A program made the translations under genes and the position numbers. This document shows positions 1,236-15,780 of a stretch of 64,000 nucleotides of DNA, piece after piece. Origin of the DNA: Candidatus Brocadiia bacterium (lineage in GTDB: Bacteria > Planctomycetota > Brocadiia > CAIUPP01); the NCBI GenBank assembly GCA_052139675.1, contig JBKQWE010000064.1, positions 4,653-68,652 of the forward strand, read 5' to 3'. A model generated the notes under the pieces. It was not told the origin of the DNA. It ran no database searches and saw only the letters and a list, made by a program, of their open reading frames with translations. Each line of letters starts with the position of its first letter. Position 1 is the stretch's first letter.

Positions 1236-3193
1236 CAGGACGCCCTCCGTGCGATGTAGCGCCGGGCGCGAACGAAGCGGACGACGGCCAGGACGATGGC
1301 GATGAGCAGGACGGCGGCCGGCGCCCAGACGAGGTCGTTGGTCTCGATCTTCGCGCCGAGCGCTTCGATGCGCGCGCGTTTGCCCGCATTCAGGCGGCGC
1401 AACTCCTTCTGGGCCTCGCGGATGTCCTCCTCGACCTTCTTGCGTTGAGCGACCGCTTCGCCGGCGATCAGTTTCTCGTTGCCCGCCGTGGCCGACGCGC
1501 CCAGTTTGGCGAGCTGGTCCTGGTACGCCTTGATCCGCTCGTTGAGCGCGTTGACCTGGTCGCCGGTGGCGGCTTCGGCCTCGCGGTCAATCCGGTCCAC
1601 CACCGTGAACGGCCGGTTGAAGCCGCCGCGCGAGCGGATGGCGATCAAGTCGGACGAGCCGGCGAGGAAATCCAGCGCGTTGGAGACCAGCGGCGCGTTG
1701 TCGCCCTGTTGCTCGGCGCCGAAGAACTCCTCGCGGTACGCCACCATGTCCGAGATCATGTCCACGTCCGCGAAGACCAGGATCACGCCCTCGCCGGGCG
1801 CTTCCTTGACCGCTTCGATGGTCTTCGGCTTGGGCTCCTCCGCGGGCTTGCCGTTCGCCGGCGCCGGCTCCTTCTTCTCTTCGGCCGGGAGCCCGTTCGG
1901 GAAGTTGGTCCGGAACTTTCCGGTGAGGCGGCACGCCAGCATGAGCGGCTTCGTGCCGTCGCTGACCGCGCGGCGGATGGCCTCCGGGTTCGGGGCCGTC
2001 AGTTCCCATGGCCCGGCGGGTTTCCACACGTTGCCGGTGGAGGTGGTGGTCAGGAGCGGCGTCACCTTGACGCCGGCCGTCGGCACCTCCTCGAGCACGC
2101 CGGCGAACAGCACCCGCACGTCGTGCAGCGGCGCCGTGATGATTTCCTTCCGGTTGAAACAGTCGTCCTGGAGCAGCATGTACGGCAGCAGCGGCGAGGG
2201 CGGCTCGTTCGGCCCGAGCTGAGCCTTGATCGCGAGCAGGCGGTCCGCGGCGATCTCGTCGGGCTCCATCTCCACGCCCCAGCCGCGCAGCAGCGCGTTC
2301 AGGTCCGACGATCTCTTCGGCTCCGCCGCCTGGGAGGGTTCCTGCTGCCGGGGTTGGTCCGCCACGCAGAAGGGGTCCACGAACACCATCAGCCGGCCGC
2401 CCTTCATGACGAACTGGTCAATGGCGAAGAGCGTTTTCTTCGGCAGGTCCTTCGGGTGGACGACCATCAGGAAATCCAGGCCCGCCGGGATCGCGTCCGC
2501 GTCCGCCGGGACGGTCTCGATGTCATACGTCTCGCGCAGGTCCGTGATGATCGTCCACGGTTTCGGCATCTCGCGCCCCTGCATGCGCATCATCTGCATC
2601 AGGTACGGCGACATCTCCGGCCCGGCCAGCTCCAGCGAGGAGAGCACGCCCACCTTTTTCTTGTCCCGCAGGACGGCGGTGGAGATGAGCTTCGAGATGT
2701 CGTACTCCACGAAGTCCTGCCGGTCCGGCTCGAAGAAGGGGATCACCTTGACCTTCCCGAACGCCGTTTGCGCCACGAGCCCGAAGAAGAACACGTCCTC
2801 CTCCGAGAGAGCGAAGCGCTTGACGCCCGCCTGCAGGGCCTCTTCCTCCGCGTCGGTGTACTGGCGCGGGTCCAGCACTTCCAGCTTGAGCTTGCCGCCG
2901 GAGAGCTTGACGTATTCCTCCAGCAGGTCGCGCACGTAGAGGTAATAACTGTTGAAGAACCGGATCGCGTCGGGGCCCTTCATCGCCGCCGTGCGGCTGT
3001 AGTAGAGCTTCAGCGTCATCGGCTGGCTGAGCTGGCCGAGGATGTGGCGCGTTCCGGGCGACAGGGTGTAAATCTTCTCCTGCGTCAAATCCACGCTCAC
3101 GCCGCGGACGGTCTTCTGGAGGACCAGGATCAGGCAGAGCGCGATGACCAGGACGCAGAGGACGGCCAGGGCGTTTCGAATCGTCTTGCTCAT
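1235..3193 (-). CDS. GldG-like ABC transporter auxiliary component
   Basis: N-terminal TM, DLTQEKIYTLS motif, IDQFVMKGGRLMVFVDP, C-terminal coiled coil and TM; coupled to permease. Confidence 0.85.
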   Translation of the reverse strand: MSKTIRNALAVLCVLVIALCLILVLQKTVRGVSVDLTQEKIYTLSPGTRHILGQLSQPMTLKLYYSRTAAMKGPDAIRFFNSYYLYVRDLLEEYVKLSGGKLKLEVLDPRQYTDAEEEALQAGVKRFALSEEDVFFFGLVAQTAFGKVKVIPFFEPDRQDFVEYDISKLISTAVLRDKKKVGVLSSLELAGPEMSPYLMQMMRMQGREMPKPWTIITDLRETYDIETVPADADAIPAGLDFLMVVHPKDLPKKTLFAIDQFVMKGGRLMVFVDPFCVADQPRQQEPSQAAEPKRSSDLNALLRGWGVEMEPDEIAADRLLAIKAQLGPNEPPSPLLPYMLLQDDCFNRKEIITAPLHDVRVLFAGVLEEVPTAGVKVTPLLTTTSTGNVWKPAGPWELTAPNPEAIRRAVSDGTKPLMLACRLTGKFRTNFPNGLPAEEKKEPAPANGKPAEEPKPKTIEAVKEAPGEGVILVFADVDMISDMVAYREEFFGAEQQGDNAPLVSNALDFLAGSSDLIAIRSRGGFNRPFTVVDRIDREAEAATGDQVNALNERIKAYQDQLAKLGASATAGNEKLIAGEAVAQRKKVEEDIREAQKELRRLNAGKRARIEALGAKIETNDLVWAPAAVLLIAIVLAVVRFVRARRYIARRAS

Positions 3194-13524: not shown

Positions 13525-13878
13525 ATGCCGGTGCAACGAGCGATAGCCGCTTACAGGACGGAAGGGCTGAACTGCGCCCAGAGCATTCTGCGCGCGTTTC
13601 AGGAGGAGTGCGACATTCCGGAGGAAACGGTCCGGGAAGCCCGGCGGTTCGGTGGGGGCCGTGCTTTGGAAGGCCGTTGCGGAGCGCTTCACGCCGCCTG
13701 CGAACTGTCTGGAGACGAAGCGGCGCGCGACCGCCTCCGCAAGGGGTTTGCCGCAAAGGCCATGTCGGAGCGCTGCCGCGAGATCCGCAAGAGCAACGCG
13801 TTCAGTTGCGAGCAGTGCATCGAACTCGCGGCCGGGTTGCTGAACAGCGCCTTCGCTGAGCTCACGACGCCGCGATGA
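13525..13878 (+). CDS. C-GCAxxG-C-C family putative redox protein
   Basis: NCAQSIL, FGGG...CGAL, CREI, CEQC; AGGAGG RBS. Confidence 0.75.
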   Translation: MPVQRAIAAYRTEGLNCAQSILRAFQEECDIPEETVREARRFGGGRALEGRCGALHAACELSGDEAARDRLRKGFAAKAMSERCREIRKSNAFSCEQCIELAAGLLNSAFAELTTPR

Positions 13879-15343
13879 ACGTGTCCTTCATCCCTTTGTC
13901 CCAGCCGTCCCACAGGAAATCGCCGTAGCGGTCGTCGGCGATGAGGCGGAAGGCGTAGCGCACCTGCTCCTCGTAGAACTCGCAGAACGCGCCGGTCCGG
14001 TCCATGCCGCCGTTCATCTCGTGCGCTTCGGCCGGGCAGGGCGATCCGCAGAAGTGCCGGATGGCGCAGCGGCCGCACGGATCAATCGCCTCGATGCTGC
14101 GTTCGGTGACCTGGCGGAAGGCTTCGCTCTTGAGGACATCGCCCAGCTCGTCCTGGAACAGGTTGCCCCCTTTGAACCGCGGGATGCCGATGAACTCGCT
14201 GCACGGGAAAAGGTCGCCGTTCGGCGCCAGCGCAAAGAAGCAGCGCCCGCCGCCGCACGGCGAGATGTCGCACATCAGCCGGCGCGCCGCCGGCGCCACG
14301 ATGCCCAGCAGGATGTTCGCGAAATTGGCCACGACCAGTTTCCGCCCCGTCTTGCGATAGAGTTCGTGGCTGCGCTCCAGCGCCCCGAGGAAATACCGGG
14401 CCGCTTCGGCGTCGCCGGGCTTGATGGCGCGCGAGGGCGGCAGCGTGCAGCGGACGATATTCAGCAGGCACGTGGGGACCTCCTCGGCGTGGAAGAAGTC
14501 CACCAGGTCGTCCAGGTGACGCAGGTTCTCCTTGGTGACCGTGCAGATCACGCTCCAGTTCTCGTAGCCGCGCAGCCGCCGCATGGCCTTCACGACGGTA
14601 TCGAAGACGCCTTTTCCATCCCAGGTGCGGCGCGTGCGCTGCGCGACGGCCGGGTTGGCGGCATCGAGCGAAAGTCCCAGGCTGACGCCCCGGTCCGTCA
14701 GGAACGTGACGGCCTCCTCGTCGAGCAGGGTGGCGTTCGTCTGAATGCCGAAGAGGAACCGCTCGCGATAGGCCTCGATCGCGGCGAACACGGCCTCGCG
14801 GTTGAGCATCGGTTCCGCGCCGTGGAAGACGATCTGCGGCCGCATCGTCTTCGGCAGCGTGGCCGCGAAGTAGCTGTCCAGGCGCGCCATCGCCTCCATC
14901 AGGCGCTCGCGGCTCATGTGCTCGCCATGCCGGCGCATCTCGCTCGGGATATAGCAGTAGCGGCAGTCCAGGTTGCACCGCTCGGTGGGGTTGAAGTACA
15001 CGGCGGAAGGCTTGAGCCCGAACCGGAGCTTCTGCATCTCGGCGGCGAACGCATCCGCCTTGCGCCGGTAGTCGGCGAGCAGCTTGCCGCCCATTCGAGT
15101 TCCCTCAGGGCGGCCCTGAGCGAGGTCGAATGGGCCGCCCGACAGGGTTTCGCCGACCCGGTCCTTCCGCACCAGCGACCAGAAGGCGGTATCCGGATCA
15201 ATCAGGGCCATGTAATCCGAGTGGCCGATATCAATCGGCTGGAGCGTCGGCCCGTTGCCGGTGTTGATGAAACGGCCCCGCGAGGGGGCCGTTTCATCTT
15301 TCCGGCTTCGGCCGCCGACGTCCTTGGCGGCGGGACGTCGCAT
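13862..15343 (-). CDS. cbpB: Peptide-modifying radical SAM/SPASM enzyme (CbpB type)
   Basis: CNLDCRYC, FHGAEP, SPASM CDISPCGGGRC...PCSEF...CGRCAIRHFCGSPCPAE...FC; ATG overlaps the precursor stop. Confidence 0.85.
   Translation of the reverse strand: MRRPAAKDVGGRSRKDETAPSRGRFINTGNGPTLQPIDIGHSDYMALIDPDTAFWSLVRKDRVGETLSGGPFDLAQGRPEGTRMGGKLLADYRRKADAFAAEMQKLRFGLKPSAVYFNPTERCNLDCRYCYIPSEMRRHGEHMSRERLMEAMARLDSYFAATLPKTMRPQIVFHGAEPMLNREAVFAAIEAYRERFLFGIQTNATLLDEEAVTFLTDRGVSLGLSLDAANPAVAQRTRRTWDGKGVFDTVVKAMRRLRGYENWSVICTVTKENLRHLDDLVDFFHAEEVPTCLLNIVRCTLPPSRAIKPGDAEAARYFLGALERSHELYRKTGRKLVVANFANILLGIVAPAARRLMCDISPCGGGRCFFALAPNGDLFPCSEFIGIPRFKGGNLFQDELGDVLKSEAFRQVTERSIEAIDPCGRCAIRHFCGSPCPAEAHEMNGGMDRTGAFCEFYEEQVRYAFRLIADDRYGDFLWDGWDKGMKDTFIAAS
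15089..15135. repeat. REP-like palindrome inserted in frame in cbpB
   Basis: GCCCATTCGAGTTCCCTCAGGGCGGCCCTGAGCGAGGTCGAATGGGC with GCCGCC duplicated at both ends; encodes PFDLAQGRPEGTRM. Confidence 0.8.
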
Positions 15344-15444
15344 CACTTGCTCCTCTTGGACATCAGGATGTAATGCGACAGACCCGTTCCGCGAGCCTTG
15401 CAGCTCTTCCGCACGGCGATGACGGCCTTCTTCGCTCCCTTCAT
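15343..15444 (-). CDS. cbpA: RiPP precursor peptide (CbpA type), 33 aa
   Basis: Manually translated MKGAKKAVIAVRKSCKARGTGLSHYILMSKRSK; contains the SCxxxGTGLSHYILM motif; TGATG coupling to cbpB. Confidence 0.85.
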   Translation of the reverse strand: MKGAKKAVIAVRKSCKARGTGLSHYILMSKRSK

Positions 15445-15549
15445 GCTTCACCCTTTCTATAAAGGAGCCTCGGAAAACAAAAAAGAGTTCCAACGGACGG
15501 TCTTTCCACCGCCCGTTGAAACCCTTTACCATCGGGTTCCAAAATGTCC

Positions 15550-15720
15550 GGCTCGTTCAGCAGGTCTTCTGGCTTTCGGATCATCCGCCCCTGACGCCTT
15601 CCCGGCCCGCTTTAGCGGGCCAGTGGCTGGCCATCGGCCTGTCAGGCGCGTCCCCGATCACAGCGGCGGGACCGCCACGGATTTTCACCGTGTTCCGGGA
15701 TGCTGAACGACCTGTTTATA
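15550..15720 (-). ncRNA. Cobalamin riboswitch
   Basis: Minus strand GGAACACGGTGAAAATCCGTGGCGGTCCCGCCGCTGTGA...GCCACTG...GGGAAGG...AGCCAGAAGACCTGC (B12 box); boundaries approximate. Confidence 0.9.
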
Positions 15721-15780
15721 ACCAATCCGCTGACTTCATGTCAAGCGTCGTCAGCGGTTGATAGCGGGGATTCCTGGCTC

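Follow-up and report, generated by a model that had tools for sequence, protein, structure and literature searches.

The stretch analysed here is a window of 64,000 nucleotides (nt) from contig JBKQWE010000064.1 of a Candidatus Brocadiia bacterium, and all coordinates are positions in this window. Its minus strand carries a cobalamin-class riboswitch, the 33-amino-acid (aa) precursor peptide gene cbpA and the radical SAM/SPASM enzyme gene cbpB. With some reserve, we favour the reading that these three parts form a self-contained cassette that is induced by corrinoids and yields a cross-linked peptide with a role in cobamide assembly. The locus is an ordinary member of the curated, named CbpA/CbpB family, whose members are named by the NCBI pipeline; its interest lies in how extremely CbpA is conserved and in a leader that appears to be of the ON type. 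Coordinates are collected in Table 1.

The RNA at the head of the cassette is a cobalamin-class aptamer. The Rfam model RF00174 was matched over its complete length (positions 1–189, not truncated) at 91 bits (gathering score 31.5, E value 3.2e-21), and this was the sole Rfam match in the 64-kb window. The minus-strand cobalamin riboswitch of the original prediction therefore stands, while its proposed boundary at 15720 does not, as the match starts at 15722. The aptamer is followed by a hairpin whose loop bears YGG, able to pair with the CCG of the L5 loop UCCCG, and this complementarity marks the hairpin as P13. The 3′ strand of P13, Y, pairs at 7/7 positions with X and also at 7/7 positions with X′, the latter forming the lower seven pairs of an intrinsic terminator; Y is in this way also the 5′ base of the 17-base-pair (bp) terminator stem. 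A terminator scan lists a stem at 15527..15482 with the tail TTTGTTTTCC. The calculated energy of the P13 hairpin is -9.9 kcal/mol, and that of the full terminator is -29.4 kcal/mol versus -27.0 for P13 plus the upper stem.

This layout recurs among relatives of the cassette. Homologues were collected from contigs of one genome per species, in which at least 563 stretches encode a CbpB relative; 80 loci were kept and are referred to by L numbers. The order X-L13-Y-upper stem-X′-U-run, with at least 6/7 pairs in both X:Y and Y:X′, was found in 68 of the 79 leaders examined (the window and 78 loci), and shuffling Y produced such double pairing in 2 % of trials. L5 reads (U/A)CCCG in 49/51 parsed aptamers. 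In alignment A3 (66 sequences: the window and 65 of the 67 passing loci, with L022 and L067 excluded), compensatory changes occur at 3/7 pairs of P13 and at 12/13 pairs of the terminator. The shared strand also covaries three ways; column 25 in Y, for example, combines with column 4 (GC 47, AU 12, GU 5) as well as with column 59 (CG 47, UA 9, UG 8). Calculated energies favour the full terminator over the P13 state in 68/68 leaders (median difference -7.35 kcal/mol).

Two designs of corrinoid riboswitch are dissected by Procknow et al. (2023, mBio, PMC10653944). The metE switch, which represses, has a terminator separate from P13, whereas in the Alkalihalobacillus halodurans cobT switch a stabilised P13 serves as the antiterminator; the latter is corrinoid-activated and responds best to cobinamide. 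The cobT riboswitch shares with the cbpA leader a cobalamin-class aptamer with an xCCCG-type L5 and a UGG-containing L13, mutual exclusion of P13 and the terminator through a common strand and a tie to late cobamide-assembly genes. It differs in what it controls, cobT rather than a peptide and radical SAM pair (cobT follows cbpB in six loci), and in being a single Bacillus-type example, whereas cbpA leaders occur in many phyla. Because P13 and the terminator both use Y, a P13 stabilised by ligand would take away the base of the terminator, the opposite of what repression needs. This design, together with activation in the only case of it dissected, makes corrinoid induction the likelier reading, and on these structural grounds we regard cbpAB as probably induced rather than repressed by corrinoids. 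The original prediction of a peptide made under B12 starvation is thus not supported. As far as our literature searches reach, a shared-strand leader of the ON type is in print for only one riboswitch.

A contrasting design lies directly beside some cbpA leaders. In 6/34 loci scanned, a second, divergent cobalamin riboswitch stands back to back with the cbpA riboswitch (Table 1); in L069 and L018, the P13 and terminator of this second element are separate hairpins and a cobC-like gene follows, which is the repressing layout and unlike the neighbouring cbpA leader. Such true repressing designs looking different, and the strand shared by P13 and the terminator, both speak against a classic repressing riboswitch, under which cbpAB expression would be confined to B12 scarcity and the Cys/His/Tyr peptide would capture cobalt or corrinoids. 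This alternative draws on the prevalence of repression among described cobalamin riboswitches (considered below), on the invariant Cys and His of CbpA, which could bind metal or act as a lower axial ligand, and on the cassette standing in one regulon with salvage and transport genes of the window genome. Capture is in turn not favoured by the neighbourhoods, in which no conserved exporter, receptor or chelatase gene was found among the ORFs scanned and the informative genes are those of nucleotide-loop assembly. Taken as a whole, we consider repression with capture unlikely.

The short open reading frame (ORF) between leader and enzyme gene, which the original prediction had recognised at 15444-15343 as a hidden precursor, is a conserved coding gene. 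Its product matches the curated hidden Markov model (HMM) TIGR04164, 'modified peptide precursor CbpA' (cobo_pep), at 49.6 bits (cut-off 35, E value 1.9e-13). In 78/80 loci, the strand of cbpB carries, immediately 5′ of that gene, an ORF for a G-x-G-L-S-H-Y peptide; counting L062, which has an F variant, CbpA is present in 79/79 testable loci (L078 ends with its contig and is untestable). Among 75 distinct CbpA peptides, R(-7), C(-4), G0, G2, L3, S4, H5 and Y6 (F in L062) are invariant, and V/I-I/V-A/S precedes them. For each invariant residue, between 2 and 5 synonymous codons are in use over the 76 distinct nucleotide cores; varied synonymous codons at invariant residues indicate that selection acts on the translated product, and this purifying selection bears out the coding status first proposed. 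The opposite view, that the small ORF is untranslated and CbpB acts on another substrate, has in its favour an ORF so short as to fall below the usual gene-calling cut-offs; it is near refuted by the codon variety, the Shine-Dalgarno-like site, the stop/start overlap, the TIGR04164 match and the complex prediction described below. At the position of the window's Shine-Dalgarno-like site, the leaders of relatives carry GAAAGGAG.

The TGA of cbpA (15345-15343) and the ATG of cbpB (15343-15341) have the A at 15343 in common, giving the TGATG overlap that had been noted from the sequence. The stop of cbpA and the start of cbpB overlap in 60/78 loci, and the two genes are probably translationally coupled. 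The 556-aa ORF at 13862-15532 in the ORF list is an over-extension through the leader; homologues begin at the MRRP methionine.

Two peptides depart from the common pattern. L062 (about 1490-1560, plus strand) encodes the sole CbpA in which Phe replaces the otherwise invariant Tyr (GTGLSHFILMG), a natural variant that argues against a modification needing the phenol oxygen. L086 (3795-3977, plus strand) encodes the sole tandem among the 79 peptides, with two full core repeats in one ORF (…VIAYRSKCDAKGTGLSHYILPEDKKEVVAFRRKCDSKGTGLSHYILPEDKVKPS).

CbpB belongs to the radical SAM proteins and carries a complete SPASM domain. It matches TIGR04163, 'peptide-modifying radical SAM enzyme CbpB' (rSAM_cobopep equivalog), at 696.9 bits (cut-off 375, E value 8.4e-210, model positions 1-427 of 428), in agreement with the pairing of CbpA and CbpB put forward originally, and its Pfam matches are Radical_SAM (PF04055) and SPASM (PF13186). 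The radical SAM motif CX3CX2C (C123/C127/C130) is invariant in alignment A1 of 25 CbpB sequences. The SPASM cysteine pattern is CX9-15GX4C ... CX2CX5CX3C ... C, and the set invariant in A1 comprises C358, C363, C368-x7-G376-x4-C381, C423-x2-C426-x5-C432-x3-C436 and C454. In the AlphaFold2 model, three strands and helices are formed at residues 35-107, where the predicted local distance difference test (pLDDT) score is about 50; no PqqD-type Pfam match to CbpB is listed at E values up to 1. The window protein also carries an insertion of 16 residues at about residues 70-85 (about 15100-15140, the PFDLAQGRPEGTRMGG region), which falls within a low-confidence linker of the model; it is wholly missing in 23 of the 24 aligned homologues, with a shorter version in P0002.

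By sequence profile, the nearest solved structures are the SCIFF thioether maturase CteB (5wgg, E value 7.7e-28) and then the anaerobic sulfatase-maturating enzyme anSME (4k36, E value 3.7e-26); a Foldseek search with the mediocre CbpB model returned 5why (E value 8.7e-17, template modelling score about 0.5) followed by 4k37. CteB/SCIFF-type enzymes (5wgg, 5why) have in common with CbpB the CX3CX2C motif, the full SPASM set and, judging from the model, an N-terminal domain that grips the peptide as a strand. They differ in that CbpB is a non-member by TIGR03974 (103 bits versus 425) and in that CbpA has one Cys, not six. For the second-best solved relative (anSME, 4k36-4k39), the likeness extends to the substrate, as the C-x-(A/P/T/V)-x-G of CbpA recalls the sulfatase motif, which is C/S-x-P/A-x-R. 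The Arg of that motif is, however, replaced by Gly at +4 after the Cys in all 75 distinct CbpA peptides, the substrate of CbpB is a 33-aa peptide and not a sulfatase, and TIGR03942 gave 113 bits against 349, so that CbpB falls outside the anaerobic sulfatase maturases. By HMM score, it likewise falls outside the SCIFF, ranthipeptide and sactipeptide thioether maturases, with 103 bits against 425 on TIGR03974, 125 against 340 on the PapB model and 74 against 625 on the StsB model. An assignment of the chemistry by HMM was tried and rejected, as there was no discrimination among the characterised maturase models (DynA, PapB, anSME, HxsB, SCIFF and cyclophane), all of which lie far below their cut-offs (66-126 bits versus 300-855).

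Prediction of the complex supports binding of CbpA by CbpB. Alignments A1 (CbpB) and A2 (CbpA) were used in three runs with three controls. The complex score was 0.79 (runs 0.79, 0.81 and 0.50) and the best of the three controls reached 0.01; the mark applied is reached by 116/157 solved complexes and 2/215 mismatched pairs, a benchmark that is rough here since our own alignments were used. The runs share at least 74 % of contacts, with a partner pLDDT of at least 55. In the model, the tightest contacts are made by CbpA V8-I9-A10 on the CbpB strand 54-59 and by CbpA 12-14 on 349-351, while the remainder of CbpA 5-30 runs along the barrel and the first SPASM cysteines, a leader-on-strand and core-in-barrel arrangement as in solved maturase-peptide complexes. 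From this we infer that V-I-A-x-R may be the recognition segment and C-x3-G-T-G-L-S-H-Y the modified part. Our best guess at the product is an intramolecular cross-link in CbpA, namely a thioether from the single invariant Cys; a cross-link from His or Tyr is the alternative.

The family is both widespread and nearly uniform. CbpB is represented by more than 2,000 90%-identity cluster representatives at E values <1e-60, and the best 120 are 65-71 % identical to the window protein, two closer ones excepted. Source names among the best matches include Planctomycetota, Syntrophales, Thermodesulfobacteriota and Anaeromyxobacteraceae. By record labels, of which some for metagenome-assembled genomes (MAGs) are doubtful, the 80 loci come from more than ten phyla; their titles name Syntrophales, Smithella, several planctomycete orders, Kiritimatiellia, Verrucomicrobiota, Lentisphaerae, Nitrospinales, Nitrospiria, Chloroflexi, Dehalococcoidia, Anaeromyxobacteraceae, Desulfovibrionaceae, Elusimicrobiales, Endomicrobiales and Armatimonadia. 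We take the family to be described by a peptide gene directly 5′ of the enzyme gene, on the same strand and behind a cobalamin riboswitch. The window cassette agrees with its relatives in HMM matches (TIGR04164 and TIGR04163), gene order, coupling and riboswitch, and nothing essential differs; the insertion in CbpB is a departure of the window protein. In an Rfam scan of 34 loci, the riboswitch lay immediately upstream of cbpA in 31; of the exceptions, L079 has it 2.1 kb upstream with an intervening ORF, L028 meets the end of its contig, and L087 has no cobalamin riboswitch in the 1.5 kb of upstream sequence scanned. Within the class of the window genome, cbpB scores above the cut-off in 7 of 61 genomes, indicating a patchy distribution.

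The neighbourhoods of the cassette hold little else in common. No conserved neighbourhood emerged when 344 neighbour ORFs from 71 loci were clustered with BLAST, CobT forming the largest cluster (8 members). Pfam was run on the first 150 of 346 such ORFs, drawn from 36 loci, and showed mostly unrelated genes. No conserved exporter, importer or protease was found among the scanned neighbour ORFs of the 80 loci. The informative neighbours are late cobamide-assembly genes: cobT lies directly 3′ of cbpB on the same strand in L012, L016, L027, L029, L061 and L063 and nearby in L053 and L069, cobU and cobC occur in L038, L045, L053 and L064, cobD/cobQ-type genes in L057, L066 and L079, and cbiG in L026. 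Cobalt chelatase or uptake genes are not among these informative neighbours. In two Syntrophales loci (L019:5159-5256 and L023:5628-5723), a thiamine pyrophosphate riboswitch and thiS/thiF-thiG-thiH genes come after cbpB, which is probably a mere adjacency of cofactor operons.

These data bear on whether the cassette makes an exported natural product, an antibiotic or signal, of the RiPP kind (a peptide made by the ribosome and modified after translation), with production only incidentally tied to corrinoid status. DynA, PapB and the SCIFF maturase CteB are the RiPP maturases nearest to CbpB, and the precursor, as modelled, has an enzyme-binding, leader-like part and a core. A peptide that is near-invariant over more than ten phyla by record labels, with CbpB 61-71 % identical, points instead to housekeeping rather than an arms race, and no conserved protease or transporter was found among the ORFs scanned in the 80 neighbourhoods. 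We hold an exported RiPP to be highly improbable.

CobS was found in 46 of the 50 cbpAB genomes reached through the loci, which include MAGs of unmeasured completeness. Within the class, CobS is present in 7/7 cbpB-positive relatives versus 36/54 negative ones, a comparison that is indicative only, as kin are non-independent. The window genome, 91 % complete, has two cobalamin riboswitches in all. The other one, on L011 (G000:C113) at 2093-2306, has a platform of about 220 nt without a U-run and heads a region (L011 2093-9316) with genes for DUF1559, cobC, cobU, cobT, cobS and btuF/FecCD/ABC ATPase (btuF/C/D)-like products. CbiB is present, there is a single ThiC-family gene, and no match to CbiD or CbiC was obtained in the 91 % complete genome. 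The gene set of L011 and the missing CbiD and CbiC matches give a salvage profile, and the organism looks like a corrinoid salvager.

A second ThiC-family gene was found in 0/50 cbpAB genomes and in 0/7 cbpB-positive class relatives, while 25 cbpB-negative class relatives have a second full-length copy. Displacement of the anaerobic benzimidazole pathway by cbpAB was considered on this basis and rejected: the second copy at L092:6722-8053 (G006) scores as ThiC and not BzaB (NF009895 (ThiC) 603 bits versus 410; BzaB 561 versus 700) and adjoins bioA and bioD, and a search of three regions with a second ThiC-family gene revealed no cobalamin riboswitch. The same data enter a further explanation, in which modified CbpA or a fragment of it would be a peptide-derived small molecule in the manner of pyrroloquinoline quinone (PQQ) or mycofactocin, serving as a cofactor or as a precursor of the cobamide lower ligand. 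A minimal precursor and radical SAM/SPASM enzyme with an invariant aromatic and His core would fit such a product, as would cobT directly downstream in 6 loci, a lack of any second ThiC-family gene, and hence of any BzaA/B/F-type gene, in the 50 cbpAB genomes, and a leader built like the cobT riboswitch that answers to cobinamide. No conserved tailoring or cleavage enzymes were found, however, and the ThiC control failed. Bza genes are rare in any case, so that 0/50 says little, and to our knowledge purine lower ligands need no dedicated pathway. We consider a small-molecule product very unlikely.

For the corrinoid-induced cassette that we favour, the following sequence of events is proposed. 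From the promoter-like site, the aptamer would be transcribed and then P13, whose L13 YGG could kiss the L5 UCCCG. With no ligand, the longer terminator would form beside the U-run and transcription would stop; with a corrinoid bound, the kissing loop would lock P13, leaving a 10-bp upper stem 7 nt from the U-run, and read-through would follow. cbpAB would probably be on in the presence of corrinoids; cobinamide or another incomplete corrinoid may be the effector, as for A. halodurans cobT. V-I-A-x-R of CbpA would be held as a strand by the N-terminal domain of CbpB, with the C-x3-G-T-G-L-S-H-Y core placed between the barrel and the SPASM domain, and CbpB would then cross-link CbpA. More weakly, modified CbpA may act inside the cell at the last stage of cobamide assembly or salvage, on the nucleotide loop or the lower ligand. 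An intracellular role in finishing or remodelling corrinoids is suggested by the corrinoid-ON switch, the link to nucleotide-loop genes and the lack of an exporter or protease, and we put it forward tentatively. In its most extended and speculative form, which is unlikely to hold in full, cbpA leaders would constitute a family of corrinoid-activated riboswitches in many phyla, and cross-linked CbpA would be an intracellular factor of anaerobes, on with incomplete corrinoids such as cobinamide. Where cobT/cobS/cobU are present and a bza-type pathway is lacking, this factor would provide or hand over the lower ligand, or complete the nucleotide loop in some other way.

Several points weigh against this reading. 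Most described cobalamin riboswitches repress biosynthesis and uptake genes, according to PMC10653944, and the sign proposed here is argued from structural logic and the single precedent dissected there. The complementarity of L5 and L13 is merely 3 bp, usually including a G-U pair, and the loops are too conserved for covariation. The proportion of paired cells in A3 (96.9 % for P13 and 96.8 % for the terminator, with ≤76 % in slid controls) is circular, because the rows were picked by the pairing filter under test, and only the compensatory changes count. In most relatives the terminator is favoured by a large margin of free energy (median 7 kcal/mol), so that the switch would have to be kinetic. 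The shared-strand layout fails in 11/79 leaders, including three alphaproteobacterial ones without a terminator: five (L066, L076, L079, L090 and L091) have no L13-like motif within 260 nt, and among the other 74 there are six failures, through interrupted U-runs (L051 and L058), a short P13 (L070 and L088) or an unfit layout (L081 and L087). On the side of the enzyme, the AlphaFold2 model of CbpB is of middling quality (mean pLDDT 62.7; the barrel is good, the SPASM domain poor), and the pass of the complex prediction may partly reflect likeness to solved maturase-peptide complexes. The chemistry of CbpB is not assignable, as every maturase HMM is far below its cut-off, and the cross-link is accordingly a guess. 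A tie of the cassette to salvagers alone was rejected because CbiD is present in 31/50 cbpAB genomes, which places cbpAB also in likely de novo producers. The link between neighbourhood and cobamides is seen in only about 15/80 loci, several of them from related lineages.

Two groups among the aberrant leaders have features of their own. L070 and L088 have a 5-bp P13 and a wholly different Y (UCCCUAA) that nevertheless forms 7/7 pairs with X′. In L081, L090 and L091 (Rhodoblastus and an alphaproteobacterial MAG), a P13-like hairpin (GAAAUCC-GAUGGAA-AGGAUUUC) is present without a U-run terminator, and control may there be translational, of either sign.

Few microbes make B12-type cofactors and most require them; the sensing and completing of cobamides thus shapes whole communities. 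CbpA/CbpB is among the most conserved pairs of peptide and radical enzyme without a known product and occurs in at least several hundred species, mostly uncultured anaerobes. In agreement with the original statement that the product is uncharacterised, full-text searches for CbpB, the TIGRFAM accessions, the peptide motif and riboswitch-linked SPASM RiPPs gave no relevant paper, within a scope that leaves out most subscription papers and part of PubMed Central. Should the leader be of the ON type, the A. halodurans cobT riboswitch would no longer be a lone curiosity and would become part of a widespread regulatory class, with hundreds of natural examples against one in print. The physiology would be reversed, the peptide being made when corrinoids arrive and not when they are missing, and attention would turn to the final steps of cobamide salvage, which are poorly understood, and to the choice of lower ligand in anaerobes. 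Two cultured alphaproteobacterial carriers, identified by record titles as Rhodoblastus acidophilus DSM 137 (L081) and R. sphagnicola DSM 16996 (L090), make the question directly testable.

Table 1. Features of the cbpAB locus in the window and divergent cobalamin riboswitches next to cbpA leaders of relatives
Feature	Location	Strand	Details
Promoter-like site	15715..15744	-	TTGACA (15744-15739), 18-nt spacer, TATAAA (15720-15715); read by eye, inferred
Cobalamin (corrinoid) riboswitch aptamer	15542..15722	-	P6 extension, L5 loop UCCCG; Rfam RF00174
P13 hairpin	15518..15540	-	X GGAACCC (15540-15534), L13 loop GAUGGUAAA (15533-15525), Y GGGUUUC (15524-15518)
Intrinsic terminator	15479..15524	-	17-bp stem, loop GGAAAG, U-run 15484-15479 then GUUUU
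Terminator stem strands	15524-15508 and 15501-15485	-	Y + AACGGGCGGU (15524-15508) versus ACCGUCCGUU + X′ GGAACUC (15501-15485; X′ 15491-15485)
Shine-Dalgarno-like site	15450..15456	-	AAGGGUG, 5 nt 5′ of cbpA ATG; sequence reading
cbpA	15343..15444	-	33-aa precursor peptide MKGAKKAVIAVRKSCKARGTGLSHYILMSKRSK; TIGR04164
cbpB	13862..15343	-	493-aa radical SAM/SPASM enzyme; TIGR04163, PF04055, PF13186
C_GCAxxG_C_C family gene	13525-13878	+	Convergent, downstream of cbpB; 3′ end overlaps cbpB stop region
Second divergent riboswitch	L018:3236-3419	-	
Second divergent riboswitch	L069:3332-3519	-	
Second divergent riboswitch	L038:3340-3525	-	
Second divergent riboswitch	L041:3326-3516	-	
Second divergent riboswitch	L015:3143-3336	-	
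Second divergent riboswitch	L045:3279-3455	-	

A promoter consensus scan did not list the promoter-like site, its rule demanding that the second hexamer end in T. As first described, the locus is minimal, with no protease or transporter gene within the cbpAB unit ahead of the convergent gene. Metatranscriptome contigs from three runs cover parts of cbpB and the leader as far as cbpA; two are identical to parts of cbpB, and one (297 nt, 22 differing letters) spans the terminator. They are at most a weak hint of cbpAB expression, as strand, ends and level are not deducible from them, carry-over of DNA is possible and gaps in their coverage carry no meaning.

The gene next upstream of the cbpAB unit encodes a glyoxalase-fold protein. 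Beyond it, on the minus strand and outside the cbpAB unit, lie two uncharacterised genes for radical SAM proteins, at 17842-16850 and 18842-17823, and one for a PMT_2-type glycosyltransferase, at 20506-18938; for these three genes, no NCBIfam model came near its cut-off.

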